From Bacteroidales bacterium (GTDB taxonomy: Bacteria > Bacteroidota > Bacteroidia > Bacteroidales > ML635J-15), in contig OY781043.1 of NCBI GenBank assembly GCA_963676165.1, forward strand, positions 3,769,342 through 3,833,341: a stretch of 64,000 nt of DNA, written 5' to 3'. The notes below the pieces were generated by a model. That model saw nothing but the letters and a program-made list of their open reading frames with translations, made no database searches and was not told the origin of the DNA. Within the stretch, counting starts at the first letter, position 1. Each line of letters begins with the position of its first letter. The position numbers were made by a program, and so were the translations under genes. Shown piece after piece: positions 14,722 through 32,403 of this stretch.

Positions 14722-14792
14722 TCAATACTTCATCTTAAGTTTATTTGTTTATTGCCAATCTGCTTCTATCTTTGAACGATAATTCACAAAAC

Positions 14793-15890
14793 ATGCGAAA
14801 AAAAGTACTGCTTTGCCTAGTTCATCATCGCCCGGATCGTTCGCCCGGACAACGATTTCGAATTGAGCAATTTCTACCAGCGCTTGAGAGAGATGCTTGG
14901 GAAATTCAGTATTCTAACATCCTAAATGAAAAGGATGATTTAACCTTTTATGCATCAGGACATTATTGGGGTAAGTTTCGCATCATGGTGAAAAGTTTTT
15001 TTCATCGTTTAAAAGATATTAAGCGTGCAAAACATGCCGATGTTGTTTTCATTTATCGTGAAGCTTTTATGATGGGGACAAGTTACATTGAAAAGCGCTT
15101 GTCAAAAATTCATACTCCGCTTGTTTTTGACTTTGATGATAGCATTTGGCTCAATGATACTTCAGTTGGGAATCAGAACCTCAGTTGGCTTAAAAAGCCA
15201 GAAAAAACAGGAGATATCTGCAGGTACTCAGATCATGTTATGGTTGGGAACGCTTATTTGGCTGATTATGCCAAAAAATTCAATTCCAACACACATGTTT
15301 TTCCAACAGTGATTGATACAAATTATCATAAGCCGAATGAAAAACGAACTGAAAATCAGAAAATTTGCATTGGCTGGACAGGAACTCAGCCCACGATAAA
15401 GCACTTTGAAACCATTCTCCCTGTGCTTAAAAAATTACATGCTTCTTTCCCTGACAAGTTATGTTTCCGTATGGTTGTAAACTTTCCATATGATTGCAGT
15501 AGCATACCATTGGAGGTTATACAATGGGAGAAAGCAAGTGAAATTGAAACCCTTCAACAATTTGATATCGGAATAATGCCACTTCCAGACAACCAATGGA
15601 CACGTGGAAAATGTGGTTTCAAAGGATTGCAGTATATGTCCCTTGAAATTCCAACAATTATGTCACCAGTTGGTGTAAACACAGACATTATTCGCCATGG
15701 TGAAAATGGATACCTTGCTGATTGTGAGGATACTTGGCTTAAAACACTCACTCAACTTATTGAGAACAAAAGTGAGAGAGAACGCATAGGAAAAGCAGGC
15801 AGACAAACCGTTGAGAAATATTACTCAAGACATGCTTGGGAAAATAAATGGGTGGAATTTTTTAATCATGTGAGTTCAGATTTTCATTAG
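14793..15890 (+). CDS. glycosyltransferase (GT-B fold, GT1/GT4-like)
   Basis: GFKGLQYMSLEIPTIMSPVGVNTDIIRHGENGYL motif. The start is moved to ATG 14793 (MRKKVLLCLVHH). The last 36 codons lie inside the 135-bp repeat. Confidence 0.75.
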   Translation: MRKKVLLCLVHHRPDRSPGQRFRIEQFLPALERDAWEIQYSNILNEKDDLTFYASGHYWGKFRIMVKSFFHRLKDIKRAKHADVVFIYREAFMMGTSYIEKRLSKIHTPLVFDFDDSIWLNDTSVGNQNLSWLKKPEKTGDICRYSDHVMVGNAYLADYAKKFNSNTHVFPTVIDTNYHKPNEKRTENQKICIGWTGTQPTIKHFETILPVLKKLHASFPDKLCFRMVVNFPYDCSSIPLEVIQWEKASEIETLQQFDIGIMPLPDNQWTRGKCGFKGLQYMSLEIPTIMSPVGVNTDIIRHGENGYLADCEDTWLKTLTQLIENKSERERIGKAGRQTVEKYYSRHAWENKWVEFFNHVSSDFH

Positions 15891-15915
15891 TAAGTGAACC
15901 CTAAAAGCCAAAGTG
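15781..15915. repeat. 135-bp direct repeat, left copy (candidate attL)
   Basis: Base-for-base identical to 26071-26205. It contains the glycosyltransferase 3' end and stop (15888-15890) and, on the other strand, an ATPase-type 3' end and stop (15887-15889). Confidence 0.95.
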
Positions 15916-15981: not shown

Positions 15982-18879
15982 TTATTGATAATATTGAGTT
16001 TGACGAGTTGGTTTTGAATCATTAGAGTTGGAATATTGATTTTTTATCTTACCTGTCCCTGTTGAAGCACTGCTTGATGGAGATGTTCTTGAGGGAGAAC
16101 TTACTAGTTTTCTATTTATTCTTCCATTATTTATTATATTTAAGTTTGGTTTTCTTGTTCTTCCTCTACTATTAGAGCCAATTCTTACTGATTTACCTGT
16201 TGTAGTACTTGTACTTTCTGCAGTAACCCAAGTGTATTGAGGAATATTTGTTCCATTATCTTTCCAATAATTAATACTATGTCCTTCTAAACCTTGAAAA
16301 TCATTACAATCCATTAATCCATCACCCGCAATAACAGGTGTATTTCCTTCTACTCCTCCATATGAATTACCACCTAAAATTTCGTTTAAAAAAAGAATAT
16401 CTCCATCTTCATAACAAATTGTTCCCACATCTACATTGTTTGAATTAAAATCAATACCAGAAACATTGGATAGAAAATAATGTAAATCACCAGCTGTTCT
16501 GGTAAAATCTGCATCAACACTTGGATTTAATGATAAAAATATGCTACCACTATTATATGCGCTTGCATTTGAAATTTTGTTAAACATACACCTTTTTATT
16601 TGTATTTTTTCACCTGGACTTGTTATATTTGCTAATATAATACTTGTTGTTGCAACAAAAGTTTCTCCATCTGCAACATCAACTGTTACAGGAACATCGT
16701 TATCATCAGATATTAGAATTACATTTCTTAGACCTTCTATTCTAATTCCTGAACCTGTATATCCATTAATATTTACATCAGCCATTGCTTTTGTAATTGC
16801 TTCAGTATTTACTAATGAATAGGCTTCTTGAGTGCCAACAAACCCGACAGGACCAAAATTAATTTCATCGCGAGTACCAATAATTTTTAATGCATTTAAG
16901 GCTTCTTCATATCCATCTAAAAATTTCCCAGATTTATCAAGTAGTTTTTGTAATGGGCTACCTGTGAAGGATATTCCCTGAGAAATGCTTATATTATCTA
17001 TATAATCCATATAAGGGATATTTGAATCTGATAGTGTTTTTACATAATTTGAAAGATCATATTCTGGAGATCCTAATATCATTGATTCTATTGTACCATT
17101 TCCAGTAAAATTAAAAACATAATTACATGGTATTGATGTAGTATTTTCATAATTACTTATCTCTGCAAAATCACAAGCAAAATATCCATCCCAAACATAA
17201 TTAGTTACACCAACTTGTCCTATTAAAGGAAAAATTCTATTTCCTGTATGTACATCTATTGATTGATTATTAACATCAAAAATAGCTTCTGAGAAATTAT
17301 TATTATTAGGATTATGAGGAATAGCTTGTCCAGAAATTTCAATACTACTAAAATCAATTATTTTATCTAAATCTGAAAGGGTTGCATCACCTTCATTTGT
17401 ACAGGTTACATTTTGAAAGTTTGAATTAAACTCAAAATCTTCATTATTAGCTAATAAAGCATATAATCTTATTTGATCCTTATTCATTTCTACATTGCTA
17501 AGATTTAAATTCAATTCACCAATATCATAATTAACGGTTAAATTATCATTAGATAATATATTATAACAAAAATAATTCCATTGTGCCGCAGTTGAAATAT
17601 TTATTGTATTATTTGAACTATTTAAAACTAAAACATTATTAGGAGTTGCAATAATTCCATTTAAAATATCTTCAATAAAAACTACATTTATATTTGCTTG
17701 GTAACCATCTGTTTCTTCTTCATATTGATTGTGTCTAGTTTGATTTGCATCATGATCTTCTTTTGCAGTTTGATAATTTTGAGTAGGAGTTTCACCAAAT
17801 AAATCTGAAACTATTTTATCTATAGCTTCTTTCATTGTTGTTAATCTAGCTGAATTTGTATTTAATAAAGACTGTATTTCATTTAATTTAGCTATAATAG
17901 TATCTATATCTTCTTGAGTTCCTCCTGAAGATACAAAATCCTGCATTAACGCATATACTTGATTTAGTTTTGAATTTATACTTGTATTAGCATTATTAAT
18001 TGTATTAAAATCATTAGAAAGTTTGCTATTTATAAGATTTACTATTTCTGAGCCATCTTGTTCTAATACATTTTCTATATAGGATATACTTTCATTTGCA
18101 TCACCAATAATATTAATAATAAGTGTTTTTAAATCTTCAAATCTCTCTAGTTGGTCTTCTGATAAAGTTATTATACCTTCATCGTAAGAAGCTTGTGTAA
18201 ATTCTGCATTGTCTCTTAAAGAATTTAAGTCTGTTATTATATTATTTTCTAATCCCTCAATTGCATCTATATTTTCATCTAATGCTTGAATGGTGGTTAT
18301 TATTTCAGGGAATGTCATTCTTGAATTTAATTCTGTTTTTATTTGTTCCATTTGTGCTTTTATAGAACTAATTGAATTTTCCAAAGAATCTAATCTTGCT
18401 CTATTTTCAGATACAGTAGTTTCGTAAGAATTTAGTATTTCATCTAAACTACCATTATATACAACAAAATATTTATTTTCTGCATTTTTATAACGACTAT
18501 CTGCTAATTCTGATAAATCATCAACTTTTTTAATACCTTCAACTGTTTGAATTTCACCTCTTTCTATTCTAATTTTAACTAATGCTTTCCATCTTTCTAT
18601 TTCACTTTCTAAAATACCAAGTGTATCACTTTCTGGTTGTAATCTATATATTATATTTGAAGAGTTAAGGTCTATACCTTCAATTCTGCCAGAAGCCTCA
18701 TCAGCTCTATATGCAATTTTGTTATAAGCCTCAACTGCATCGGCGATATTATCTTCTGGTTTATAACACCCTGTTGTGTAGATTGCTAATGAAAATAATA
18801 AAGCTATAATAGCATTTTTAGAAAAATGTTTTAAGTGTCTTGCTAAATTTAAAAGTTCTCTTTTTTTATCAGCAGTCAT
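15982..18879 (-). CDS. large coiled-coil surface lipoprotein, function unknown
   Basis: 965 aa with lipobox AIYTTGC and about 350 aa of heptad-like, N/E/I/L-rich sequence. This is followed by a beta-rich N-rich region and a basic S/T/N-rich tail. No family was recognised. Confidence 0.6.
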   Translation of the reverse strand: MTADKKRELLNLARHLKHFSKNAIIALLFSLAIYTTGCYKPEDNIADAVEAYNKIAYRADEASGRIEGIDLNSSNIIYRLQPESDTLGILESEIERWKALVKIRIERGEIQTVEGIKKVDDLSELADSRYKNAENKYFVVYNGSLDEILNSYETTVSENRARLDSLENSISSIKAQMEQIKTELNSRMTFPEIITTIQALDENIDAIEGLENNIITDLNSLRDNAEFTQASYDEGIITLSEDQLERFEDLKTLIINIIGDANESISYIENVLEQDGSEIVNLINSKLSNDFNTINNANTSINSKLNQVYALMQDFVSSGGTQEDIDTIIAKLNEIQSLLNTNSARLTTMKEAIDKIVSDLFGETPTQNYQTAKEDHDANQTRHNQYEEETDGYQANINVVFIEDILNGIIATPNNVLVLNSSNNTINISTAAQWNYFCYNILSNDNLTVNYDIGELNLNLSNVEMNKDQIRLYALLANNEDFEFNSNFQNVTCTNEGDATLSDLDKIIDFSSIEISGQAIPHNPNNNNFSEAIFDVNNQSIDVHTGNRIFPLIGQVGVTNYVWDGYFACDFAEISNYENTTSIPCNYVFNFTGNGTIESMILGSPEYDLSNYVKTLSDSNIPYMDYIDNISISQGISFTGSPLQKLLDKSGKFLDGYEEALNALKIIGTRDEINFGPVGFVGTQEAYSLVNTEAITKAMADVNINGYTGSGIRIEGLRNVILISDDNDVPVTVDVADGETFVATTSIILANITSPGEKIQIKRCMFNKISNASAYNSGSIFLSLNPSVDADFTRTAGDLHYFLSNVSGIDFNSNNVDVGTICYEDGDILFLNEILGGNSYGGVEGNTPVIAGDGLMDCNDFQGLEGHSINYWKDNGTNIPQYTWVTAESTSTTTGKSVRIGSNSRGRTRKPNLNIINNGRINRKLVSSPSRTSPSSSASTGTGKIKNQYSNSNDSKPTRQTQYYQ

Positions 18880-18907
18880 TTTTAAATGAATTTTTATTTT
18901 CTTCTTA

Positions 18908-19222
18908 AATTCTGACTAACGTAAAAATTAGTCTCTGATTTTCAGTTCTTTAAGATTTACTCAAATTTATCATTTTTAGCTCATTTTCGCACCCCATTTT
19001 TACGTTAGCAACAGGATTTAATAAGCTCTGGAAGATTAGATAATTTTATTTGTTTTTCTAATCTGGAAGTGCTTATGTGGCGAATTAGGTATAACGTTGA
19101 GAATATGGGACGTTTGGCATTTCAAAGTACCAACCGTTCAAACCTCTATATATTTAATTGATATACTCATTTTCAAATTTAGCACGATCCGCCAAATGAC
19201 CTATATTTATTGTTGTCCCCAG
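18908..19222. repeat. island intergenic repeat, copy A (intact)
   Basis: Contains a 13-bp perfect inverted repeat (18916-18928 / 18996-19008), a hairpin module (19033-19064) and a distal module (19085-19222). All three are alignable to the interrupted copy at 21632-24802. Confidence 0.6.
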
Positions 19223-20329
19223 TTATTTCTTATTCATTTCATTACTTCCAAATTCAAGTACCCAAGGAACTGCAAGCATATTGTATGCTGTATTAGCTAA
19301 TAGTACTTGAAATTCTTTGTTTCCCGGATGAAATCCAACAAAAGCAATGAAACCCATAGTCCCACCGAAATGTACAATAAAACCACTTTTATATTTTCCC
19401 CAGCCGAGGCAGATATCAGAATAGGTTAATGGTGTTTCTCCAGATATTTGTACTTCATGAGTTTTTTGCATTGCTGATTTTAAAGGGGAGTCTATTATTC
19501 CTACATTAGCCTTAGCATAAACTATTAAATCTTTCATACATGAACGAAGGCCTCCCGAAGTATTAAAAATACAGCTATCATTTCTATACCAGTTTACATT
19601 ATCCATCCCCAAATAACCATTGGCATAATTATCATCAGAGTGCTCTTGATAATTCACACCTGTTCGGGTCATTTTCAATGGCTCAGTGATTTTAATTTTT
19701 AAGAGTTCATTGTAGTTTTGTTCGTAAATATTTTCTAATGCATATCCAAGAATTGCAAAACCAAGCGGTGAATATATAATTGAATCTTTGGCAATGCCTT
19801 CTATTTTATAATTCTTTAGAAATTCATATAATTTAGTCGGTGTGTAATTCAAATAATCCTCTGTTTGTTGAACTGGATTATTCGTATGAATATCTGTTGG
19901 CATATACGGTAAGCCTGAGGAATGAGTAATTAATTGTCTTATTGTAATCTTCCCCGTACTATTTTCAGGAACTATGAATTTATTAGGAAGATATTTCTCA
20001 ATAGGATCATCATACGATAACTTTCCCTCCTCCTCTGCAATTGCAATTAACAAAGCGGTAAAGGATTTTGTAACAGAACCAATTTCAAATTGAGTTTCAA
20101 GGTTAATCTCTTTTTTAGTCCGTGAAGCACTTCCATGGATATAGAGAGAATCAGTATTTCCACTTGCTTTATAATATATTATTCCCAGATAGGTTGAATC
20201 ATTAAGCTTAGATTCCAGATAATCATTAAAATATACAGACGTGATTTCTTCCTTTTGTGGTTTATCATTATTACATGAATATAAAATTACTAAAACCACA
20301 ATAAATAATAAATAGATAATTTTCTTCAT
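19223..20329 (-). CDS. serine hydrolase (class C beta-lactamase / PBP-like family) lipoprotein
   Basis: SxxK motif GSVTKSF and a lipoprotein signal MKKIIYLLFIVVLVILYSC. The start is moved to ATG 20329, because the ORF-track N-terminal extension runs through a repeat copy. Confidence 0.75.
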   Translation of the reverse strand: MKKIIYLLFIVVLVILYSCNNDKPQKEEITSVYFNDYLESKLNDSTYLGIIYYKASGNTDSLYIHGSASRTKKEINLETQFEIGSVTKSFTALLIAIAEEEGKLSYDDPIEKYLPNKFIVPENSTGKITIRQLITHSSGLPYMPTDIHTNNPVQQTEDYLNYTPTKLYEFLKNYKIEGIAKDSIIYSPLGFAILGYALENIYEQNYNELLKIKITEPLKMTRTGVNYQEHSDDNYANGYLGMDNVNWYRNDSCIFNTSGGLRSCMKDLIVYAKANVGIIDSPLKSAMQKTHEVQISGETPLTYSDICLGWGKYKSGFIVHFGGTMGFIAFVGFHPGNKEFQVLLANTAYNMLAVPWVLEFGSNEMNKK

Positions 20330-20505
20330 GCGTTTAAATTTTATCATTATTTCTCCTAATTTATTTTTCTTAACGGATGGCGGTATGAAACGGTTGGGTT
20401 TTCGGAGCTCATAATTATCAACCGAGAAAAAGGCTGGCGCGAGAACCAAAGTTTCGCAAACCACTGAACCCCAACTGTTTTATGACCGCGTGTTGTGGGC
20501 AGTAA
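20330..20505. repeat. island intergenic repeat, copy C (distal module only, inverted)
   Basis: It shares GTTGTGGGCA (20492-20501, reverse complement of TGCCCACAAC at 24674-24683). It also shares TGAAACGGTTGG (20386-20397, reverse complement of the CCAACCGTTCA-type motif at 19130-19140). Confidence 0.45.
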
Positions 20506-21585
20506 TTAGTTCAGCTCAATTGCCTCATTAGTCTTAATTCGATAAACTAATCCATTTTCAAGTCCATAATAATAATATCCATTGAATTCTATAAAAAATG
20601 CTCCATCTGAATCGGAAAGTCCTTTATCTGTTATATTGTCGGTTTTTCCAGTTTCCAAATTTGAATATTTTAACCATTGTGACCAACCAAAATCAATTAA
20701 TAGATTATCAAATATATTTGCAACTGTAGTTGTACTCCAATTAACATTTGTTTCAATATCTACTTTTTTAGTCCAAGTAGAACCGTCATTACTTGTATAC
20801 ACGGAATTTCCTCTTAATTGCATGATGTTTTCAGAATCTTTGAAAATTGCTTGTGTTGATTCAATCTTTTCTAAATATCCGTTGTCATTTATAACATGCG
20901 TTCCATCAGAGGCTAATACATAATCAAAGTCTTTAAATCTTACTAAATCATACTTTTTAGGGCTTTCAAAAAAGGGTAATTCTGTAACATCAATCATCTT
21001 ATCAACAGTACTAGACAATCCACCTGTCTGATTTACCTTTATCCTTAAAATACAATAATAGTCATCTGAATTATCCATACCAGACGCATCCGATTTATCC
21101 CAACCGTGCATAATTACTGAAAAATCATCCCCATGATTAGACATTATATCTGATTCAAACATTCTTGTTTTATAACCTCGTGTTTGATAGTTTGGAATTT
21201 GCATATGCTCAACTTCTGATTTTTGATTACTTCCAATTTCTTGAAAACTAATCGAAATAGAATCCGTACTCCCGGGATTTGGAAAATAATAAATCGGAAT
21301 ACTTAGAATCTCCGCATTCTCAAATATGTATGCTGAACGAGTTTCTACAGATTTTTCTCCTGGAATTATTTGAGTATTAATAATATTGTGGTCTTTGTCA
21401 AAAGTAAAAATCGAATCTTTAGACATCAAAACTAGTTGGTTATTTATCACTGTTCCTGTCGTAAAATTCCGATTAGACATTTCTATGATTTTCTCCCAAC
21501 TATATTCAGAATTTGTATCAATCTCTTCTTTCTCACAGCTAATCAATCCGATTATTGCTATTATAAATAATAATTTCTTAATCAT
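20506..21585 (-). CDS. hypothetical lipoprotein
   Basis: 359 aa with lipobox IGLISC and a beta-rich sequence. No recognisable family. Confidence 0.55.
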   Translation of the reverse strand: MIKKLLFIIAIIGLISCEKEEIDTNSEYSWEKIIEMSNRNFTTGTVINNQLVLMSKDSIFTFDKDHNIINTQIIPGEKSVETRSAYIFENAEILSIPIYYFPNPGSTDSISISFQEIGSNQKSEVEHMQIPNYQTRGYKTRMFESDIMSNHGDDFSVIMHGWDKSDASGMDNSDDYYCILRIKVNQTGGLSSTVDKMIDVTELPFFESPKKYDLVRFKDFDYVLASDGTHVINDNGYLEKIESTQAIFKDSENIMQLRGNSVYTSNDGSTWTKKVDIETNVNWSTTTVANIFDNLLIDFGWSQWLKYSNLETGKTDNITDKGLSDSDGAFFIEFNGYYYYGLENGLVYRIKTNEAIELN

Positions 21586-21650
21586 ATCTATTGGTTTAGT
21601 ATTTAATTTCTAATTTCAACGATGCACGCCTCCCTTTATTCTGACTAACG

Positions 21651-23030
21651 TTAAAAATTACAATTGGGACTCAACGAGTTACCAACTCCAATTTCTTCCG
21701 GTTTTATGTCAAATTTAGCCATTTGTTTTTTAATTCTTTTAGCGATTCCCATTTTTCTTTTTTGATCAAGGAATAAATATTCTGTTGGGGGATTATATGG
21801 CACTTGCTTTACGACCATTGTCCAAATTATAGTGGCAAGCTTTCGAGCAGTCGCACTTACTGCTGCTTGTCGTCCTTTCCTATAAGCAATTCGATTAAAG
21901 AAATCAGACATATGAGTGTCTTTTAAATTCCCGATTGCATTTGCTGAATGCCGGAGTGCTATTTTTAATCTGCTACTCCCCTTGGGGATTCGATTACTCA
22001 ATACTTTTCCTCCTGATATTTTATTGTTCGGGGCAAGCCGTAACCATGAACAAAACTCCTTTGCTGTTTTAAACTTTTTAAATCCATCAATTCCAACCTC
22101 ACTCATTATTGCCATTACGGTTGCATGACTTACTCCTTCTATTGCCATTAAATCAACGCCTCCAAAATATTGAAAAGCAATTTGATTGAAGTTTTTAATG
22201 TCAATCGCATTTTTATTAATCCGCTTATATGGCTTATCTGTTGTTTTAAGCTTTTGTTTTTCCGGATTCTTTCGTATTTCTTTTTTAATTAATCGCTCAA
22301 TCTCTTTATCGCATGCTTTGATTTTCTTTTGAAAAAATTTGTAGCTGTCAAATTCCTGCTTTAATCCCAATAAATAGTCTTCTCTATTATTTCCATGCAA
22401 AGCTTTGGCTATTTCTTCTTTGGGCTTTCTGCAATTATAGTGTCGGTGTTCTGCTAATGAATATGGATCAAGATTCCCATTACAGATATCAGCAATGATT
22501 TTGATTCCTGTAAGCCCGCAAATATCATTTACCACAACATCTAAACGAAAGTTCAAAAACTTAAGGTATTTTGCCATTTTATGGGAGGCGCTTGATGCTA
22601 AATCAATCCAATTAGCCCTTTGACGGCAATAGGTCCGTAATGTTTCTGTGGTCTCATCGGGAAGAAAGCTACCCGAGAGCAATCCCAAAGAATGAAGTTG
22701 TTGAATCCAACGACTATCTTTTACATCTGTCTTTTTCCCTTTTGCATTTTTTGTAAACTTTCCATTGCACAAAATAACCTCAATGCCATGTTTTTGCAAT
22801 TCCACATATAAATTTTGCCAATAATCACCTGTTGATTCCATTGCTACTGTGGTAATATCATATGAAAGCAACCATTTGCAAAGTTTCACCAGATCTTCAG
22901 CATAAACACCAAATTCTTTTACATCTTCTAATGATTGCCCTACTGCAACAAAATGAGATCTGCTACCCACATCAATACCTGCTGCATTGTGATTTACAAT
23001 CTCCATTTCAATTTTCTTTTTCCTTGCCAT
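21651..23030 (-). CDS. IS110 family transposase (DEDD recombinase)
   Basis: N-terminal RuvC-like DEDD motifs (AAGIDVGSRSHFVAV, AMESTGDYW, DVKDSRWI) and a C-terminal Transposase_20-like HhH region (LMAIEGVSHATVMAIMSEVG ... ISGGK). Confidence 0.9.
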   Translation of the reverse strand: MARKKKIEMEIVNHNAAGIDVGSRSHFVAVGQSLEDVKEFGVYAEDLVKLCKWLLSYDITTVAMESTGDYWQNLYVELQKHGIEVILCNGKFTKNAKGKKTDVKDSRWIQQLHSLGLLSGSFLPDETTETLRTYCRQRANWIDLASSASHKMAKYLKFLNFRLDVVVNDICGLTGIKIIADICNGNLDPYSLAEHRHYNCRKPKEEIAKALHGNNREDYLLGLKQEFDSYKFFQKKIKACDKEIERLIKKEIRKNPEKQKLKTTDKPYKRINKNAIDIKNFNQIAFQYFGGVDLMAIEGVSHATVMAIMSEVGIDGFKKFKTAKEFCSWLRLAPNNKISGGKVLSNRIPKGSSRLKIALRHSANAIGNLKDTHMSDFFNRIAYRKGRQAAVSATARKLATIIWTMVVKQVPYNPPTEYLFLDQKRKMGIAKRIKKQMAKFDIKPEEIGVGNSLSPNCNF

Positions 23031-23245
23031 ATTTTTTCATTTTAATTCGTAAAATGACTCTAAGGAAATGTATCTTTGAATCGAGAAATATTCTGAACGG
23101 GGTCTTCGCTTAATGCGAGCCACCACTGGATTTATCAACAGGCCTCTGAAGTGAACTTTCAGAGGCTTTTTACATTTCAACCAGAATTACGCACGGGCTT
23201 TTTAAGCACCATTTAAAAGATCGGTCATACATAGAGTCGGCATAA
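21656..23245 (-). mobile_element. IS110-family insertion sequence (boundaries approximate)
   Basis: Similarity to copy A stops after ...CTAACGTTAAAAATTA (21660) and resumes near 23248. There are no terminal inverted repeats, as is usual for IS110. It has a long 5' non-coding end and almost no 3' end. Confidence 0.6.
23031..23245 (-). ncRNA. candidate IS110 bridge (guide) RNA in the left non-coding end
   Basis: The roughly 215-nt non-coding leader upstream of the recombinase is where IS110-group elements encode the bridge RNA. It contains a strong 9-bp hairpin (23141-23165). No covariance model was run. Confidence 0.25.
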
Positions 23246-23399
23246 AAATAGCAGAACTTTTCTTTCAAACACCCTCCTTCGTTAGCAAAAGGATTTAATC
23301 TGAGCTGGAGGAATAGATAACTTAAGTTTAAATCTATTTGGGAGGTTCTTATGTGGGGAATGTCTTGTCCTGAAATATGGCTACAGGTTAAACATACGA

Positions 23400-24260
23400 T
23401 TAAGCTCTATATTTAAACACCATATTAGGGGTTTTATAATTCAAAGATAAGTGTAATCTTTTATTATTATATATGCTGATAGCATTTTTAGTAGCGACTT
23501 TAGCATTTTTCAGGCTAAAGAAGCATTGATCGAGATAAAATTCTTCTTTAAGAATTCCATTAACTCTCTCAGCTATAGCATTTTCATAACAATGATTTTC
23601 TTCTGTCATACTTATCTTAATATTTCGTTTTTTTAATTCTTTTACATATTGATTACTACAGTATTGTATTCCACGATCAGAGTGATGTACTAATCCCGCC
23701 GCTGGTCGGGCATGCCACAGAGCCTTTTTGAGGGCTCGTAGGCAGCCCGCCAGCTCCAGTGAGTTGCTAATATCATATCCAACGATTTTCCTGGAATACA
23801 TATCAGTAATAAGTGCTAAATAACAAAAACCATTAACAGTTCTGATGTATGTAATATCAGATACCCAAACTTGATTAGGAGCAGTAACAGTCATGTCTTT
23901 CACAATGTTTTTATACTTGTGAAAACGATGATAAGAGTCTGTAGTTCTGCAGGATGCTTTTTTACGTTTTATAAGCATATTGTTGTCTCTGAGAATATCA
24001 AAAAGCTTATCTCTACCAACTTTAATACATCTCTTTTCAAAAATTGTATTTAGAGATTTATAGAGTTTTTTTGTTCCAACTCTTGGCTGTTCAATCCGTT
24101 CATTTTTCACAAGTTCAAGAACCTGATTTTCGACGTTTTCTCTTTTAAGTTTACGCTCTATAAATTTATAATAAGCATCTCTGTGCATACCAAAGCACTG
24201 GCAGGTTTGCTCAATGCTTGCCTGCCTTGTGTGCTTAATTTTTTCCACTGCCTTAACCAT
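23400..24260 (-). CDS. IS3 transposase OrfB (rve/DDE integrase core)
   Basis: DDE core motifs WVSDITY, HHSDRGIQY and NAIAERVNGILKEE. It lies in the -1 frame relative to OrfA. Confidence 0.9.
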   Translation of the reverse strand: MVKAVEKIKHTRQASIEQTCQCFGMHRDAYYKFIERKLKRENVENQVLELVKNERIEQPRVGTKKLYKSLNTIFEKRCIKVGRDKLFDILRDNNMLIKRKKASCRTTDSYHRFHKYKNIVKDMTVTAPNQVWVSDITYIRTVNGFCYLALITDMYSRKIVGYDISNSLELAGCLRALKKALWHARPAAGLVHHSDRGIQYCSNQYVKELKKRNIKISMTEENHCYENAIAERVNGILKEEFYLDQCFFSLKNAKVATKNAISIYNNKRLHLSLNYKTPNMVFKYRA

Positions 24261-24262
24261 AC

Positions 24263-24628
24263 TTAGATGTTTAAGTTTTTTTTTAGCTCTTCGACATCTT
24301 TATATCCCAGTTTTTCAGCTGCGACTTCAAGATATGAATCAGATGCTAATTTGTCTAAGTCTTTCTTAATCAATAACTCTTTGAGTTTTTTGATTTCTTT
24401 TTGTAAGGCTTTGAGTCTGGTTGTTTCGTCTTGAGTTTCCACTAATATACGAGTATTCATTAAATCTTTCCGGTTGTACTTTTTGATCCATTCGTTTATG
24501 GTAGTTCGGTTAATACCATAAATTTCACCTAGTTTTTTCTTTGAATAATTTCCAGTACTAAGTTCGGCTAAAATTTTCAATTTAAAACCTTCACTGTAAC
24601 GTTTTGTAATCCCATCATTTTTATACAT
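24263..24628 (-). CDS. IS3 transposase OrfA (HTH + leucine zipper)
   Basis: 121 aa with an HTH (LGEIYGINRTTINEWIKKY) and a coiled-coil C-terminus. Confidence 0.9.
   Translation of the reverse strand: MYKNDGITKRYSEGFKLKILAELSTGNYSKKKLGEIYGINRTTINEWIKKYNRKDLMNTRILVETQDETTRLKALQKEIKKLKELLIKKDLDKLASDSYLEVAAEKLGYKDVEELKKNLNI
24276..24284 (-). promoter_or_regulatory. programmed -1 ribosomal frameshift site (A9 run) of IS3
   Basis: The minus strand reads CTA AAA AAA AAC near the OrfA end. The -1 frame from this run is open and continues into OrfB (KKKLKHLSMVK...). Confidence 0.65.
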
Positions 24629-24802
24629 AATTTACTACATATTGTGTAGCCAGATTTTAGGACGGGTCAGAATTGCCCACAACGGTAAATTGTATGAGTA
24701 GTGGCAGATTGCGGGCTACTTTCCTGTCAAACCGCTATGCAGTTTGAGCGGGTTACAAACCTTGATGTTTACCACTTCGCCTGCCATTACTTATACAAAG
24801 TG

Positions 24803-25855
24803 TTACAGGGCGTTTTTATCTATTTCTATTCTATAAATCAAGTCGATAGGTTCAGGATATTTTAACGGAATATATTCTATTGCGAAAGGCAAATTCAATT
24901 CGCAAGCCGTATCAACATCTTTCTCTAACAAATCATTCTCTTGGCAATATTGAATTACCAATTTCATATAATTTCTCAATATCTGCAAGGATGGAAATCT
25001 CCCTTGCTTAGTCAACCACTCCATTAAGTCCGTGTCATTTTTTGAGGCATTACATTTTCGACAAGCCCAAACAAGATTTTCACCAGTGTCTTTCCCTCCT
25101 TTATTTCTTGGAATTATATGGTCAAGTTGTAAATTTCTTGTCTTACCGCAATAAACACAGCACTTGTCAGAATTTAATTTTGATTTCTCATCGTGAAACA
25201 ATGACCCCATATTCATTTGTCCAGACATCAATCCTTTAAATAGTCTTTGTCTGATAGCAAAATGATTTCTATTATATCTTTCAGTGTCATCCTCATTTGC
25301 TCTATATGCCATCGCTAAATTTGAATAAGACCAAAATAAAACGTCCTTAATTTTCTTGTATTCTCTTTTTGTCGATTTTCCGACAAAAGGATTTATTTTA
25401 ACTGGATATTTTGATTTATCTATGGAATACGGAACTCTCGGTTCTTTTCTTCTTTGTTCTCGGTCTTTCTCCGATTCAATTAACTCAGTTGCTATCTCTA
25501 ATCCTATTTCCGTTTCAAACTCAATTTGAGTGCGTGCCCACATTCCAATTTTAATTATCCAATTAATTTCCTCTGATAAATGATTTCCGAATAGTTTTTT
25601 ACAATTCTGGCAGGCAGGAAGTGAATTTTCGGCTGAATCTATCTCACTGAATGGAGTCGAAACACTAAATTTCTTATCGTCTAATTTCTCACCGCATATA
25701 TGACAGATTCCAGAAGTCTTTTCGAAAACCAATTGTTTTTCCGCTTTTCTCAAAGCTTTGGATTTTTCTTTTGACTTTGATTTATGTCGCAATTCACTCA
25801 ATCGTCTGAATTCTGCAAATAAAATTTCTTTGTCATCAATATATGGTAATTCCAT
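24803..25855 (-). CDS. HNH endonuclease with a degenerate N-terminal HNH-like zinc ribbon
   Basis: The C-terminal HNH motif is CVYCG...LQLDHIIPRNKGGKDTGENLVWACRKCNASKND. The N-terminal CHICG...CQNCKK ribbon lacks the catalytic D-H. No RuvC motifs. Confidence 0.8.
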   Translation of the reverse strand: MELPYIDDKEILFAEFRRLSELRHKSKSKEKSKALRKAEKQLVFEKTSGICHICGEKLDDKKFSVSTPFSEIDSAENSLPACQNCKKLFGNHLSEEINWIIKIGMWARTQIEFETEIGLEIATELIESEKDREQRRKEPRVPYSIDKSKYPVKINPFVGKSTKREYKKIKDVLFWSYSNLAMAYRANEDDTERYNRNHFAIRQRLFKGLMSGQMNMGSLFHDEKSKLNSDKCCVYCGKTRNLQLDHIIPRNKGGKDTGENLVWACRKCNASKNDTDLMEWLTKQGRFPSLQILRNYMKLVIQYCQENDLLEKDVDTACELNLPFAIEYIPLKYPEPIDLIYRIEIDKNAL

Positions 25856-25962
25856 CTTGTTGCGTCGTTTGTTTAAATGCCCTGTAACTCGTTTATCCCC
25901 TCACAAAACCTAACGAATACATCCAATATTTGTCATATATCTATAGGTTTGTTTGCTTCCTT

Positions 25963-25970
25963 CAAATATA
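25963..25970 (-). promoter_or_regulatory. -7 promoter box (TATATTTG on minus strand) upstream of the HNH gene
   Basis: TAnnTTTG match about 108 nt upstream of the ATG at 25855. Confidence 0.3.
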
Positions 25971-26070
25971 AACAAAATCGATGAAAAAAGCAATTGCTTA
26001 TTTATTTTATTTGGTAAATTGTCAAAAAGCTTGTTGTAGAATGCTTCTGAAGGCATTGAAAAAAGACTCC

Positions 26071-26205
26071 AACGCATAGGAAAAGCAGGCAGACAAACCG
26101 TTGAGAAATATTACTCAAGACATGCTTGGGAAAATAAATGGGTGGAATTTTTTAATCATGTGAGTTCAGATTTTCATTAGTAAGTGAACCCTAAAAGCCA
26201 AAGTG
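26071..26205. repeat. 135-bp direct repeat, right copy (candidate attR)
   Basis: Identical to 15781-15915. It supplies the last 9 codons and stop of the ATPase gene at 26177-27370. Confidence 0.95.
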
Positions 26206-27370
26206 GAATAATATTTTCTGAACCTATTTCAATATCATCTTTGATAACCCATGAGTTTTCAATATCTTTTATTTGCTGTTTCGACTTATTTTTGCCACCA
26301 ATTTCAAAATGATACTTCTCGTCCAACATAAAATCAACCTGCTTTGAAGCTGAAACTTGATGGTTTTGTTGTAATTGATTGAAAAAGAATGTCTCTCGAA
26401 CATTACCAGTATCCGGTTGCTGATCTGAAAGTGCAAACATCATATTGGAGTTATTGATATAAATTTTCTCAGGTTTATTCAAACTATTAATCCCTCTGTT
26501 TGCTGACTTCAATAAACTCAAAATTTCAGCATCATGCATAAGATACAAATACTGTTTAAGTGTATTTATGCTAATTCCTGTACGACTGCTCAATGAAGTC
26601 ATATTCGGTTTAAAAGGCACACTATTACTAAGAATCTGCAATAGCTTTTTCAAGTAATAAATATTTGCAGAAGGAATATTTATAAATTGAGGAATATCAA
26701 CTTCCAATATTGTTAAAATAACCTCTTCAAGTTTTCTGTGAAACGATATTTTATTTTCAATATAAAAAGGATAATAACCATGTAATAAATAGTCATTAAA
26801 ATATGCTAGTGGTTTAATTTGATTTTTAATTTGGAAGCCAATTTCCACATGATTTTTTAGAATATCTTTTAATTTATAAGATTCAAATTCATAAACACCT
26901 TCAAAGCTTAGATATTCACGAAAAGAAAGTCCTGGCATGTGATATATAACCGCTCTACGACTTAAATCTGCTTTTGCTTTTTGAAAATGTAATAATGACG
27001 AACCTGTAAAAATTATTTTCAGGTCAGAAAAATCATCATATATATTTTTTAACTCAATTGCCCAGTTATTATACCTATGAATTTCATCTAAAGCAAGCAA
27101 TCTACCACCTTTCATATAAAACGCTGAAGCAAGGTCATAAAGACGATTTTCAGTGAAGTACAAATCATCAAGGCTAACATATAGTACATTATCGAGTACT
27201 TTGTATTGCTGCTTTATATACTGAAGAATTAATGTTGTTTTACCAACACCTCTACTCCCCTTAATTCCAATCAAGCGATTTTTCCAATCAATGATATCTT
27301 TAAAATCTCTAACTGTTTCAAGATTTACTTCAGATAACTTAGTATAGAATTTTTGTATTAGCTCATTCAT
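26177..27370 (-). CDS. AAA+ ATPase (AAA_14 + DUF4143-like, COG1373 type)
   Basis: Walker A GSRGVGKTT and Walker B LLALDEIH. Paralogous along its length to 58219-59406 (shared ...KDDIEIG...IPLW..G..Y C-terminus). Confidence 0.8.
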   Translation of the reverse strand: MNELIQKFYTKLSEVNLETVRDFKDIIDWKNRLIGIKGSRGVGKTTLILQYIKQQYKVLDNVLYVSLDDLYFTENRLYDLASAFYMKGGRLLALDEIHRYNNWAIELKNIYDDFSDLKIIFTGSSLLHFQKAKADLSRRAVIYHMPGLSFREYLSFEGVYEFESYKLKDILKNHVEIGFQIKNQIKPLAYFNDYLLHGYYPFYIENKISFHRKLEEVILTILEVDIPQFINIPSANIYYLKKLLQILSNSVPFKPNMTSLSSRTGISINTLKQYLYLMHDAEILSLLKSANRGINSLNKPEKIYINNSNMMFALSDQQPDTGNVRETFFFNQLQQNHQVSASKQVDFMLDEKYHFEIGGKNKSKQQIKDIENSWVIKDDIEIGSENIIPLWLLGFTY

Positions 27371-27458
27371 GATTATTCATTTTAACAAAAATACTAAATT
27401 TATCAATGCATTGACAGTTTTTAAAATATATTTATCAATACGTTGACAGTTTTGCGAC

Positions 27459-28679
27459 TTAAAAACTCCATTTCCCTCGCAAAAAGGCATAAGTTCCACC
27501 GCCACCTTCATTGGTTGGGATATCGCTAAAGAAGCTTTGTGCAGTAATATCAAACATGAAATTTTTGGAAATGGAAAAAGAGCATGCCGGTCCTACATAG
27601 GTGAAATTATTTTGTGGTGAATACATACCTGAGAAACTAAGATTGATTAGAGGCGATATCGGATAGGTAAAATTTGCAAAGAAAGTCCAACGATTATAGG
27701 AAAGATTTTTCGCAGAAATCCGTTGGGTATAAAAATCGGATAAATTGAATGGTCTATCCTTATCAATCGCTGAGTTAAACATTACTTCAGCTTGTATCAT
27801 GCTACCATTTTTAAAGCTATAATCGGATCCTATACTGGCAATAAATGTTCCATTACTATCTGCAGCATACTCAATTGGATGAAAATATGACACTTCTCCT
27901 CTCAAGGCAGCATTCCACAAATTTCCTGACCACCCCATGCCGGCAACATAATCTTCGCTATTAAAAACACCTGCCAAAACTTGGATATCGTATTGCCATT
28001 TATTGAATTGATAGAGTGCTGCAGCAGTCATATTGGTATCTCGATTAACAGCAGCAGCAATTTCTAAGCGAGAGGCATAATTCAGATAGTACTGCGCACG
28101 GAAGGCATCGCTGCCGGGTTTTTCTTCGTAATCGAAATCAAAATACGAATAGGCGTTAAAAATATCGTTGGGATTCCAGACAAAACTCTGTCCCCAATTA
28201 ATACGCTGTCGCCCAGCAGTAATGTCCCATTTTCCTTTTTGAAATTTCAGAAAAGCCCTGTCAATACTGGTATTTAGAAAATAGGAATCTCCTTTTATCA
28301 CATTGTGATTGAGATTGAAAAAGCCAGAATCAAATTCTGTTTCATCCACAAAATTATAAGTGCCTGCAGCTCCTAAAAGTGCATTAAATGGTGGCTGTGA
28401 AAATGTAACCATCTCACCAAAATATAAACGATTTCGTAAAGACACTTGTGCACTAAGGTAATTTTTTGAATAATAGGCAATATCAAAGCGATTGTGAATA
28501 AGGGAATTTGTTATCCACATACTGTCAAGCTCCTGAAAAGAAATCATTTCCATATATTTAACATAGCCATTTACGACCAGTTTATTTTGAGCTTTTCCAC
28601 TCATGCTTATGATGAGTAAAAATGGGATCAATAGGTATAACTTTTTCATAGGTCTCGCTTTGCTATATTTCAATTTCAC
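27459..28679 (-). CDS. outer-membrane beta-barrel protein (last gene of the Lol-like operon)
   Basis: Signal peptide, alternating hydrophobic beta-strand pattern rich in aromatic residues, and a C-terminal ...RGKWSF ending in Phe. Confidence 0.6.
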   Translation of the reverse strand: MKLKYSKARPMKKLYLLIPFLLIISMSGKAQNKLVVNGYVKYMEMISFQELDSMWITNSLIHNRFDIAYYSKNYLSAQVSLRNRLYFGEMVTFSQPPFNALLGAAGTYNFVDETEFDSGFFNLNHNVIKGDSYFLNTSIDRAFLKFQKGKWDITAGRQRINWGQSFVWNPNDIFNAYSYFDFDYEEKPGSDAFRAQYYLNYASRLEIAAAVNRDTNMTAAALYQFNKWQYDIQVLAGVFNSEDYVAGMGWSGNLWNAALRGEVSYFHPIEYAADSNGTFIASIGSDYSFKNGSMIQAEVMFNSAIDKDRPFNLSDFYTQRISAKNLSYNRWTFFANFTYPISPLINLSFSGMYSPQNNFTYVGPACSFSISKNFMFDITAQSFFSDIPTNEGGGGTYAFLRGKWSF

Positions 28680-28688
28680 TCCAAACTT

Positions 28689-29372
28689 TTAACGACTTTC
28701 ATCCGATTTGATTTTTCCATCTTCAACGGTAATAATGCGTCTTGCTTTATTCACTACGCGCTGATCATGTGTGGAAAAGATGAATGTAATGTTCTCTTTT
28801 TCATTCAGCTCCTGCATAATATTTAGCAAGTTTTCAGTGGATGCTGAATCTAAATTTGCTGTTGGTTCATCGGCGAGTATAAACTTTGGACGCGAAGCCA
28901 ATGCCCTTGCTACAGCGACACGTTGCTGCTGTCCTCCGGACATTTTTCCTGGACGACTTTTTAAGCGATCACCTAAGCCTACAGCTTCAAGCATTTCAAT
29001 AGCACGCTGCTCCCGTTCTTTCTTATTCCATTTTTGCATCTGCATTATGAATTCCACATTTTCTTTGGCTGTCAATACCGGAATTAAATTGTATGCTTGA
29101 AACACAAATCCAATATTTTTTAATCGAAAATCAATGATTTGCTTATTGCTCAACTCTCCTATTTGAACGCCATCAATAATCACTTCGCCTTCTGTTGGTT
29201 TATCAAGACCTCCAAGCATATTCAAAAGTGTGGTTTTTCCTGATCCTGAAGGACCCACAATGGCAGTAAATTCACCTTGTTCAATTTCTAAATTTATACC
29301 ATTAACAGCATGGACAGGAATTTCGCTTCCGTTATAAATTTTATGGAGATTTTTGGTTTCTATAATTTTCAT
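28689..29372 (-). CDS. ABC transporter ATP-binding protein (LolD/MacB-type)
   Basis: Walker A GPSGSGKTT, signature MSGGQQQRVAVARAL and Walker B ILADEPT. Confidence 0.92.
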   Translation of the reverse strand: MKIIETKNLHKIYNGSEIPVHAVNGINLEIEQGEFTAIVGPSGSGKTTLLNMLGGLDKPTEGEVIIDGVQIGELSNKQIIDFRLKNIGFVFQAYNLIPVLTAKENVEFIMQMQKWNKKEREQRAIEMLEAVGLGDRLKSRPGKMSGGQQQRVAVARALASRPKFILADEPTANLDSASTENLLNIMQELNEKENITFIFSTHDQRVVNKARRIITVEDGKIKSDESR

Positions 29373-29390
29373 GATATCTGGTTTTTAAAA

Positions 29391-30614
29391 TTAATTACTA
29401 CTGATAATTTCAGCCGGTTTCATTTTTCCGGCGCGTAATATTGGGAAGATCGCAGCCACCAAAGCTGTCACAATAACCAAGGCAACAATTTGCAGATAAA
29501 AACTCGCATTGATTTCCGGATAAAGTACTGCGCTAAACCCAAAGGAAGAAAATCCCTCTGCGTATTTACTTAAATCGATGCCATTTCTTGCGGTTAAGCT
29601 TACCAAGACTTGATTTAGCGCCAAGCCTGCAAAAGAACCAATGGCAGTTAGGAAAAGGGTTTCCAAAATAATCATACGACGAATTTTGCCTTGATGCATT
29701 CCCACAGCCATCAACATGCCTAGTTCTTTTTTCCGTTCTAAAATTGACATAAGCATGGTATTGATGATACCGAAAGCCAAAGCAAACATAATGATTGCAA
29801 CTAAATACCAAAGGAACTGCTCTGTCATCATGTTCATCATTCCGAGATCAGGATTAATTTCTTTCCAATTTTTCCCTTCAAATTGCCCAGGTAAAAGCTT
29901 TCCAAGTTCTGCACTACGCTCTACTAGGTCTTCATTATCGACAAATCGGGTAATTATTTCATGAGAATCTTCAGGAGAAAATCCTGCAATAGACTCTAAA
30001 TCTGATCGTTTCACAAAAACATGAAACTGGTCATACATAGTATTGTCCGTTTGATAAATGCCCACAATCCGATATGCTCCACCAGTTAAATCTCCATTAT
30101 TTCCTAAAAATGTAATGACAGGTTTTGAGCGCATTTTAATTTTTAATTCCTCCGCCATTGTGCTGGAAATGATGAGTTGATTTTTTGTGTCACTATCAAA
30201 ATAACTGCCTTCAATGATTGCGTTTTCAAGCTCAGTGACTTTCATCTCATCTTCGGGATTAACCCCGATTAAAACTGCTCCTGTATTTTGATAGGCAGAT
30301 GCTATGCTGCAATCAATTTTAAGTCGAGAGCTGCTTGCCTCAACAAAATCCTTTTGGTTGATCTGAGCCAGTAGAAGGTTAACATTCTGCATGTAATTTC
30401 CAACTTCAGGATTGTCTAAAAACCCTTGCATATGCACCTGATAATGCGATGATTCTATGTCTATGGCTTTATCTATTCGCTGATTTACTGCTCCTATCAT
30501 AACGGCAGTCGAAAAACCACCACCTATCATTCCAAATGTCACGGCAATAATTACCACAAGACTACGCGAAGGGTTTCTCCAAATATTTCGCCAAGCTATT
30601 TTTATAAGTTCCAT
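29391..30614 (-). CDS. ABC transporter permease (FtsX/MacB-type)
   Basis: N-terminal AWRNIWRN TM helix, a large periplasmic domain and a C-terminal 3-TM FtsX domain. Confidence 0.88.
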   Translation of the reverse strand: MELIKIAWRNIWRNPSRSLVVIIAVTFGMIGGGFSTAVMIGAVNQRIDKAIDIESSHYQVHMQGFLDNPEVGNYMQNVNLLLAQINQKDFVEASSSRLKIDCSIASAYQNTGAVLIGVNPEDEMKVTELENAIIEGSYFDSDTKNQLIISSTMAEELKIKMRSKPVITFLGNNGDLTGGAYRIVGIYQTDNTMYDQFHVFVKRSDLESIAGFSPEDSHEIITRFVDNEDLVERSAELGKLLPGQFEGKNWKEINPDLGMMNMMTEQFLWYLVAIIMFALAFGIINTMLMSILERKKELGMLMAVGMHQGKIRRMIILETLFLTAIGSFAGLALNQVLVSLTARNGIDLSKYAEGFSSFGFSAVLYPEINASFYLQIVALVIVTALVAAIFPILRAGKMKPAEIISSN

Positions 30615-30630
30615 AATTCTCTATTATTAG

Positions 30631-31845: not shown

Positions 31846-31851
31846 GAGATT

Positions 31852-31914
31852 GATTGCTAATTGCTAATTGCTAATTGCTAATTGCTAATTGCTGATTGCT
31901 GATTGCTGATTGCT
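31852..31914. repeat. heptamer tandem array (ATTGCTA x5, ATTGCTG x3, ATTGCTA x1)
   Basis: Nine contiguous 7-bp units read directly from the sequence, lying between the permease start and the four-helix-bundle gene stop. Confidence 0.95.
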
Positions 31915-31949
31915 ATACTTCGAAATTAATCAGTGTAAATTTTTGTTTG

Positions 31950-32321
31950 TTAATATTTAAGGTTTTTTTGAGTTAATAGAATTAGCACATTAATTTCTTT
32001 TAATATTTCATCAATAAGTAAATTCAACTCTTTATATTGCTCTTCATTAATTAGATTTCTTCGGTATGATTTATTAAGCCAATCCATACATTCAAATCCT
32101 GAACCTCTTGAATATCTATAAAAATTGATTTTGTCTTTTTTAAAATGTCTCCCTTGACTTTCTGCAATATTTGCGGAAATTGAATCTGCTGCTCGTGTAA
32201 ATTGTGAACCTATTGTTTTCTTTTCAAAGCTTCCCCATTTAGAGACAAATTCCCACACTGTATCTGAAAACTCAGTTGCTTTTTGGTAGGCAGGGATGTC
32301 TGTTATTTCAAATATTTTCAT
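31950..32321 (-). CDS. four-helix-bundle protein (23S rRNA intervening-sequence protein / Avd-like family)
   Basis: Family-typical core QFTRAADSISANIAESQGR. The start is moved to ATG 32321 (MKIFEITD), because the ORF-track extension translates the heptamer array. Confidence 0.8.
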   Translation of the reverse strand: MKIFEITDIPAYQKATEFSDTVWEFVSKWGSFEKKTIGSQFTRAADSISANIAESQGRHFKKDKINFYRYSRGSGFECMDWLNKSYRRNLINEEQYKELNLLIDEILKEINVLILLTQKNLKY

Positions 32322-32323
32322 GA

Positions 32324-32393: not shown

Positions 32394-32403
32394 CATTTAA
32401 GTT

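Follow-up and report, generated by a model that had tools for sequence, protein, structure and literature searches.

Homologous leader modules in a Bacteroidales gene island are probably the two ends of an IS110-family insertion sequence with attC-like targets

Why should the gaps between the genes of one small bacterial island share sequence, and why should that sequence hold a hairpin whose two arms change in step? The question is raised by a stretch of 64,000 nucleotides (nt) from a Bacteroidales bacterium (assembly GCA_963676165.1, contig OY781043.1, positions 3,769,342 to 3,833,341; hereafter the window, to which all coordinates refer), where the genes from 15982 to 25855 all lie on the minus strand. 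A first-pass annotation of this DNA described three gaps between island genes as copies of one private repeat: copy A intact, copy B split and copy C inverted. Our results suggest another answer, to which we give a probability of about 0.8: the shared leader modules are the left end (LE) and right end (RE) of an insertion sequence (IS) of the IS110 family, of the bridge-RNA type, with copy B as a full-length element, copy A as a miniature, and attC-like sites as the targets of both.

The proposed homology of the leaders holds for two of three modules, which stand far above chance, but not for the distal ones, whose Smith-Waterman scores were compared with those of shuffled sequences. The first module, 18909-18931 in A and 21638-21660 in B, agrees at 22 of 23 positions with one indel (two matches in the window, none in 100 shuffles), and the hairpin module, 19003-19085 in A and 23280-23361 in B, at about 80%. 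Within the latter, the arms AGATTAGA/TCTAATCT (A) and AATAGAT/ATCTATT (B) stand where they had been placed and are homologous, and the flanking words CTGGAAG, CTGGAGG and TGGGAGG are present and hold an invariant GGA on each side of the stem. The middle of A (18931-19002) had been matched to a counterpart at about 23248-23279, and this match dissolves, with a score of 8.0 against 23180-23279 that 157 of 300 shuffles equal; the distal part of A (19086-19222) is marginally similar to that of B (24673-24802; score 12.5, reached by 6 of 300 shuffles). Copy C does share inverted words of 10-12 nt with the others, but its similarity to A and B is at chance level in either orientation, and hence it is not an inverted copy of the repeat.

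The nature of the two sound modules became apparent from homologous loci (given L-numbers here), collected by a protein-guided scan of one genome per species that returned 80 loci with relatives of the transposase encoded in copy B (61-93% identity, spanning residues 1-459), more than 20 of these copies being in a single Draconibacterium metagenome-assembled genome. Element ends were set where the more than 20 Draconibacterium copies and those in other genomes cease to be alike: similarity starts at (A/C)ATTCCCCACATAAG upstream and stops at TTTTAACGTTAGTCAGAA(T) downstream, limits that correspond exactly to the hairpin module, in minus-strand reading, and to the first module. This multi-copy comparison and nhmmer place copy B at 21638-23360 (minus strand), with its first 3-4 LE nucleotides and core at 24670-24673 (minus strand), beyond a second insertion sequence described below. 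A profile of the 83-nt LE module (nhmmer) matches only IS left ends or miniatures in the 80 loci and the window, and in other genomes both modules accompany the element at more than 30 loci, whose flanks are unrelated. Since the modules coincide with the element ends, and the LE module occurs only at left ends or in miniatures, copy B is a full-length IS110-family element.

Its open reading frame (ORF; 21651-23030, minus strand) encodes a 459-residue DEDD recombinase with an N-terminal DEDD/RuvC-like domain (Pfam DEDD_Tnp_IS110, PF01548, 6.8e-20), a C-terminal Tnp domain (Transposase_20, PF02371, 1.2e-12) and 210 bits to NCBIfam NF033542, whose cut-off is 140; an exact-protein look-up of the transposase returned no record. 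The LE comprises 331 non-coding nt upstream of the gene, including the hairpin module (23280-23361, plus strand; hairpin 23298-23352, inner stems 23310-23318 and 23332-23340). The RE module (TAATTTTTAACGTTAGTCAGAAT; 21638-21660, minus strand) contains the stop codon of the transposase (21651-21653), and the element stops 13-15 nt past that codon. The ends, ATTCCCC... and ...GTCAGAAT, are not inverted repeats. From its tip, the LE runs through a terminal donor sequence of 9-14 nt (ATTCCCCACAT), the stem-loop, a subterminal GCTAACG, a promoter-like box and a sense non-coding RNA (ncRNA) of about 185 nt. The GCTAACG is inverted relative to CGTTAGTC in the RE; this pair is the sole inverted motif, with a distance to the LE tip of 77 nt here and about 36-42 nt in relatives.

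Copy B is split by an IS3-family insertion sequence (23361-24669, minus strand; Pfam rve and HTH_Tnp_1, NCBIfam IS3 253 bits), with orfA at 24263-24628 and orfB at 23400-24260 (both minus strand); its terminal inverted repeats, TG...CA, are imperfect, and 3 bp, GAA, are duplicated at 23358-23360 and 24670-24672. It entered 3-4 nt within the left end of copy B, and taking it out restores ...ACCGTTGTGGGCA-AT-TCCCCACATAAG. In Mariniphaga sediminis (L009:157-171) an IS3-family end about 80% identical to window positions 23361-23375 abuts an IS110-family LE at the same nucleotide, with ...GGACTAGAC there and ...GGACAAGAC in the window directly followed by ATTCCCC. Either an IS110::IS3 composite was inherited or transferred as a unit, or this IS3 prefers that site.

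Copy A (18909-19085, minus strand) is a 177-bp transposase-less derivative of an IS110-family element, recognised by its miniature homologues and by its match to the transposase 3' end. Read from 19085 to 18909, it consists of LE nt 1-83 (hairpin module 19003-19085, plus strand; hairpin 19021-19076, which folds better on the plus strand), a diverged remnant of the transposase 3' end (about 72 nt), and the RE (18909-18931, minus strand; ...ACGTTAGTCAGAAT), with a 13-bp subterminal inverted repeat between 18916-18928 and 18996-19008. It is identical over its full length at 96% to L010:6372-6549 and at 85% to L062:4392-4568, two miniatures that lie in the Draconibacterium genome in different contexts and flanks. 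Its last 45 nt or so align with the transposase 3' end and RE of full elements, the 3' coding end of B is weakly recognisable in its interior (score 16, 2 of 300 shuffles), and the RE tips of A and B are identical (ACGTTAGTCAGAAT), the LE tips differing at one base. The three miniatures form a family of deletion derivatives. Copy A arose by a single internal deletion that kept only LE nt 1-83 and the last 94 nt or so. It obeys the same target rule as full elements, and would be mobilised in trans by one such as B. We also considered a miniature inverted-repeat transposable element, an identity at odds with the missing terminal inverted repeats, the three copies and the empty metagenome scans reported below; the term non-autonomous IS110 derivative suits copy A better.

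The LE of copy B also contains a candidate bridge RNA, the structured sense ncRNA (23053-23240, minus strand; RNAalifold). It is preceded by a TAnnTTTG-like box (23243-23250, minus strand) that we take to be a Bacteroidetes promoter motif, and whose use we infer. Across 39 homologues the structure has 36 pairs, 22 of them with compensatory changes, many sense-strand G·U pairs, and a better alifold energy on the sense than on the antisense strand. The 3' side of its first internal loop (for instance GUGCGUAAUU, GUACACAAUU, GUGGCGCAUU or UGCGUUCAUU) reads the same as the 7 nt to the element's left followed by ATT. This resemblance covaries with the target: over 46 sites, loop and left flank are identical at 120 of 276 comparisons for positions -7 to -2, against 81.8±7.5 when permuted (p<1e-4), and the signal is kept among 38 unique guide/flank pairs (p=0.0013). 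The loop would thus base-pair to the target's bottom strand, like a left-target guide, and the left-target guide of a bridge RNA is expected to look like this (PMC11208160). Rfam scans at gathering and permissive thresholds gave no credible match with E<=5 in 18700-26300, and a tRNA-Leu elsewhere in the window was the only match to reach a gathering threshold.

Nearly every copy follows one target rule, CATAY-N6-9-(A/C)CGTT-N7, then the element, then A/T-rich sequence, usually with a gene on the same strand about 20-50 nt past the element. AT is likely to be the core, because it follows N7 in 8 of 10 empty sites (8 loci and 2 sites of the window). The element inserts at CGTT-N7-AT, 7 nt past an attC-like GTT, at the 5' edge of a cassette and co-oriented with its gene; the attC hairpin stays intact after insertion. 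Some copies are stacked head to tail, as at L062:4378-4568, where the miniature directly follows the RE of a full element whose CGTT-AGTCAGA mimics the target (the L010 miniature occupies an ACGTT-GGCGGTA site of its own), and at L014:2210-2666, where a truncated copy is followed by some 330 nt from another IS110-type left end (ATTCCCCATTTAAAG...), one that also stands behind the RE in L001, and then by a full copy. Such stacking fits the RE's own CGTT-N7-AT serving as a target.

The flanks that carry these targets are imperfect palindromes of about 125-140 nt, which start ...AAC just past the upstream stop codon, end in GTT, and enclose a spacer left unpaired, an L-type box that is paired (GTATAAG/CTCATAC and variants) and a variable loop. 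This attC layout (R boxes AAC...GTT, spacer, L boxes, loop) is present at 24674-24812, at 20365-20503 and in most flanks of other loci, and the bottom strand is the more stable in 17 of 21 attC-like sites, by -2.3 kcal/mol on average. The site at 24674-24812 (minus strand) closes the cassette of an HNH gene and is occupied by copy B; its inverse core GCCCTGTAAC overlaps the stop codon, it ends ...CATACAATTTACCGTT+GTGGGCA, and it folds into a single long imperfect hairpin of -23.6 kcal/mol on the bottom strand (z -2.9, 0 of 200 shuffles) and -19.5 on the top, nearly identical in design to the flank in L035. Copy C falls in a second such site (20365-20503, minus strand), which closes the cassette of a 359-residue protein, has an L-box stem of 19-20 bp and a 3' half resembling the L038 flank, and offers an unoccupied target, CCGTT-AAGAAAA-AT. 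The third, upstream of copy A (19086-19226, minus strand), is degenerate but retains the target motif, as CATAT-N6-ACGTT-ATACCTA.

The cassettes can be delimited by their two ends. The 5' boundary of the HNH cassette (25879-25888, minus strand) is GTTACAGGGC followed by AT, and GTTACAGGGC (25888 to 25879) and GCCCTGTAAC (24811 to 24802), which flank the HNH gene, are exact reverse complements of each other. The same relation links GTTGTGGGCA (24683 to 24674) with TGCCCACAAC (20501 to 20492), a pair that flanks a unit of IS3, IS110 and the 359-residue gene, all on the same strand. The orientation switching that had been proposed from these words is thus the 5' end and the attC inverse core of one cassette on one strand. 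For the other loci, we compared the GTT+N7 10-mer at the LE junction with the 3 kb downstream. Exact reverse complements (10/10) were found in L002, L030, L036, L045, L048 and L063, 560-2050 nt downstream of the junction, and several more loci matched at 9/10; our own estimate of the chance expectation is about 0.003 exact matches per locus, and the reversed-sequence control gave none. The match stands just after a same-strand ORF in five of these six loci, as in window copy B (no ORF of >=60 residues was found in L036). In L002, L030, L036 and L045 a CGTT comes 125-130 nt after the match; the spacing is 85 nt for L063 and 177 nt for L048, and L005 and L067, which are near matches, show 126-127 nt. 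The targets therefore have a cassette architecture, and the island is at most a cluster of attC sites lacking integron-integrases (CALIN)-like array. Two further target-like sites on the minus strand are unoccupied: GAGTT-ACAGGGC-AT at 25879-25890, which is the 5' boundary of the HNH cassette, and TTCGTT-AGGTTTT-GT at 25905-25915, upstream of the HNH gene. The latter includes the CGTTAG at 25910 that had been listed as a core of the repeat; it is a separate CGTT-type site and lies in no repeat copy. The first-pass annotation was right that the gaps are not neutral spacer, and right to think of an IS110 target or a cassette boundary, as both are involved; the roles are reversed, the repeat being the IS itself and not its target.

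Could the modules instead belong to the host, as a leader or a repetitive extragenic palindromic (REP)-like repeat that IS110 targeted, so that IS110 and IS3 split copy B and left A intact? IS110-family elements do target repeats (PMC11208160), and the modules do flank the transposase gene in B while being adjacent in A. Yet in more than 30 loci of other genomes they keep a fixed distance from the transposase gene while the sequence outside differs, they never occur without an IS or miniature partner, the 72-nt middle of A resembles the transposase 3' end and not the LE of B, and the conserved target CGTT-N7-AT lies outside them. We consider this origin highly improbable. Less remote, though still unlikely, is the idea that the structured flanks are ordinary terminators or REP-like palindromes and the island no cassette array. 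It would accommodate the lack of an integrase gene found near the island, cores that deviate from RYYYAAC/GTTRRRY, and the one site that folds poorly. It does not sit well with unit 5' ends that are exact complements of the inverse core, a feature of two successive units in the window and of six loci elsewhere, with the uniform site length of about 125-140 nt and the succession of R box, unpaired spacer, L box and variable loop, or with the greater stability of the bottom strand in 17 of 21 sites.

The hairpin at the LE tip, which lies outside the guide RNA, raises a question of its own. In an alignment of 18 distinct versions of the 83-nt LE module, its outer stem of 6-9 bp and its inner stem of 8-9 bp are separated by a symmetric 3x3 internal loop, and an AT-rich loop of 10-16 nt tops the structure. 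The internal loop is invariant in all 18 sequences (GGA/GGA on the plus strand of the window, TCC/TCC on the transposase-sense strand), and neighbouring stem positions vary. The compensatory change that had been seen between A and B proved both real and general, as the covariation test found changes on both sides in 10 of 18 pairs, on the plus and sense strands alike, with structural constraint on the hairpin as had been supposed. Standard pairs fill 88.9% of cells on the plus strand and 78.7% on the sense strand, values that none of 500 shuffles reached on either strand, and controls with slid partners pair at 34-50% and 32-44%, respectively. The strands differ in their wobble pairs: 33 cells at six pair positions are G·U on the plus strand, none on the sense strand, where they are C·A. 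These G·U intermediates link GC and AU alternates, and the minimum free energy is lower on the plus strand in 18 of 19 sequences. Judged from the alignment, selection appears to keep the hairpin paired on the antisense strand relative to the transposase. It is missing from more distant relatives that share the target, and in them ATTCCCCACAT continues to ATTAAnTnCT...GCTAACG within about 40 nt; the hairpin is thus a clade-specific insertion of about 40 nt, upstream of the separate sense ncRNA.

Several roles for the hairpin were tried and set aside. Its loops are not target or donor guides, as the TCC/TCC words match neither flanks nor ends; it does not mimic attC, as AAC/GTT cores are not conserved in its outer stem (copy A lacks them); and it is not an intrinsic terminator on either strand, there being no U-tract behind the stem. 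Reading the sequence for Bacteroidetes-type bottom-strand promoter boxes common to the miniature and the full element revealed none. Our best guess, a tentative one, is a cis-acting structure of the bottom strand next to the donor end, formed by single-stranded DNA or an antisense transcript, which may modulate end recognition or expression. In a more specific form, which we hold unlikely, the hairpin with its invariant GGA/GGA loop would gate donor-end use or expression of the bridge recombinase. [quoted passage not shown] If true, bridge recombinases would have a structural checkpoint on the donor side that has not been described for them.

An unlikely alternative makes the hairpin part of a sense transcript, as a 5' stem-loop made from a junction or read-through promoter, like the repressive stem-loop of IS621, or as a target-binding loop. 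Its position at the LE tip, the place of the 5' stem-loop in IS621 (bioRxiv 10.64898/2026.03.19.712850), and its succession of stem, internal loop and stem, as in a binding loop, would suit such a role. Against it stand the wobble cells, all 33 of which are G·U in the antisense and C·A in the sense direction, and the sense fold, weaker in 18 of 19 sequences; in addition, the TCC/TCC loop words have no match in target or donor, it is a segment of the downstream ncRNA that covaries with the target, and a promoter-like box separates hairpin and ncRNA. Or the hairpin may have no function at all, as a palindromic insertion inherited in one IS clade, which would explain its absence from same-target relatives and the lack of an identified partner or function. 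We find this the more doubtful of the two, given that 10 of 18 pairs changed on both sides with pairing kept, that G·U intermediates link GC and AU, and that the GGA/GGA loop is invariant in 18 distinct sequences with varying adjacent stem positions. A bottom-strand cis element remains our preferred, if tentative, account of the hairpin.

Some results weigh against the overall interpretation of the locus. On the side of the RNA, the A/T-rich right flank seemed complementary to the 5' side of the first loop, as expected of a right-target guide, and permutation did not support it (p=0.54). The donor guides are suggested by resemblance, of GUUCAGAAUAUU to GTCAGAAT+ATT and of GUGCGUAAU to the complement of ATTCCCCAC, partners that are invariant, so that covariation is impossible. 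For the miniature, we found only three copies, and two metagenome pattern scans gave 0 matches. Among the targets, one of the three window sites (19086-19226) folds poorly on both strands, no better than shuffles. We found no tyrosine recombinase or integron integrase among the ORFs of 10.6-35.5 kb, and neither among the best 25 of 53 families in the rest of the window. As for the hairpin, its absence from distant relatives with the same target makes it dispensable for the basic reaction, and its bottom-strand bias comes from six pair positions in related sequences, with p≈0.02 roughly, if the positions are independent.

The remaining island genes, all on the minus strand, encode a 965-residue protein without family (15982-18879), a beta-lactamase-fold protein (19223-20329), the 359-residue protein, also without family (20506-21585), and the HNH protein (24803-25855). 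The last has domain-level matches to the HNH regions of IscB/Cas9, to PADLOC PDC-M01B and to PtuB, below family cut-offs where a cut-off exists (NCBIfam), and annotation of defence systems among the island cassette genes returned only weak HNH-domain matches. The neighbouring AAA_14/DUF4143 ATPase (26177-27370, minus strand) has a match (2e-30) to PDC-S01, a candidate defence family. A perfect 135-bp direct repeat (15781-15915 and 26071-26205) brackets the 10.3-kb low-GC island; it holds the 3' end of a glycosyltransferase gene (14745-15890, plus strand) and the last 29 nt of the ATPase gene, and on the minus strand its last letters, ...CCTATGCGTT, coincide exactly with the island edge. Conceivable origins are an att-type duplication, insertion of a circle by single crossover, or an assembly artefact. 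GC skew on the plus strand is negative throughout 16000-34000, which gives the cassette coding strand a leading-strand composition and places the attC bottom strands on the leading-strand template. Sedentary chromosomal integrons are reported to show this orientation bias. Elsewhere in the window, a Mutator-family (IS256-like) transposase (Pfam PF00872, 1.2e-102) was found among 29 ORFs outside 10.6-35.5 kb, so that the window holds at least three IS families, and a tandem heptamer, (ATTGCTA)n, lies at 31853-31908, just upstream of an FtsX-type permease gene (30631-31845).

These results change the annotation of the locus, from an apparent private regulatory repeat to a disrupted IS110-family element, its miniature, an IS3-family element and a short cassette-like array. 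The 177-bp miniature is a natural substrate and suggests an upper bound on cis requirements, and the lineage carries an unexplained accessory hairpin with a bottom-strand bias. Genomes of Marinilabiliales, Prolixibacteraceae and Flavobacteriales carry uniform attC-like sites of about 130 nt, and the elements could travel with the downstream cassette, as their insertion leaves the attC hairpin unbroken.

Among known systems, the closest in design are the IS110-group bridge-RNA elements IS621, ISEc21 and ISPpu10 (Durrant 2024, PMC11208160; Siddiquee 2024, PMC11187229). Like them, the element has a DEDD and Tnp recombinase, a long upstream non-coding LE, a very short RE and no terminal inverted repeats, a structured ncRNA in the LE with a loop that matches the target flank, and strong target specificity in a fixed orientation. 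Going by its sequence, copy B would thus belong with the IS110 group by protein, layout and ncRNA, and in part by guide, for the left flank. It differs from IS621 in that its ncRNA does not have the simple two-internal-loop shape, and from the precedents of the group in that the segment identical to the left target (top strand) is on the 3' side of the loop, in its extra LE-tip stem-loop favouring the bottom strand, and in its Bacteroidota hosts. The stem-loop recalls the repressive 5' stem-loop of IS621 (bioRxiv 10.64898/2026.03.19.712850), although its strand bias argues otherwise. ISPpu10, which is structure-gated, also inserts beside a hairpin of the target DNA, a REP there and an attC-like stem here (bioRxiv 10.64898/2026.03.19.712850), whereas the conserved hairpin in question here lies in the element's own end and not in the target. 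Copy B apparently has an internal promoter, as reported for ISPpu9 (PMC12288879). The closest precedent for copy A is ssr9 of ISPpu9, a small transposase-less module with IS110-family ends, found behind the full element or alone and thought to use the ISPpu9 transposase (PMC12288879); ssr9 is an added small-RNA gene downstream of the transposase, whereas in copy A an internal deletion has brought the LE tip and the transposase 3' end together.

On the side of the targets, units of an ORF and an imperfect palindrome of 125-140 nt with AAC...GTT cores, co-oriented and with no nearby integrase, resemble integron cassettes and CALIN, and attC sites of 57-141 nt are a criterion for integron arrays (Cury 2016, PMC4889954). 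The array differs from CALIN in its non-canonical core words (GCCCACAAC / GTTGTGGGC), in its length of about four units and in being bracketed by the 135-bp direct repeat. Membership in the IS1111-attC group was considered as well, and set aside: the non-coding region lies upstream of the gene, and the likeness is one of behaviour only. Tetu and Holmes are said to have described, in 2008, degenerate footprints of IS1111-attC elements in cassette arrays. The members of that group (ISPa21, ISPst6 and ISKpn4; Tetu & Holmes 2008 and Post & Hall 2009, cited in PMC11187229) are insertion sequences with a DEDD transposase that occupy one end of integron attC sites in fixed position and orientation, as the element does here. 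They belong to the IS1111 subgroup, with the non-coding region and the seekRNA downstream of the transposase and subterminal inverted repeats of 7-17 bp near both ends, and their hosts are Proteobacteria. Since an upstream non-coding region is the IS110-type layout, the targeting of attC looks convergent between the two groups. A Bacteroidota lineage with that layout would thus have settled on attC-like junctions, a habit that the cited literature describes only for IS1111-type elements of Proteobacteria.

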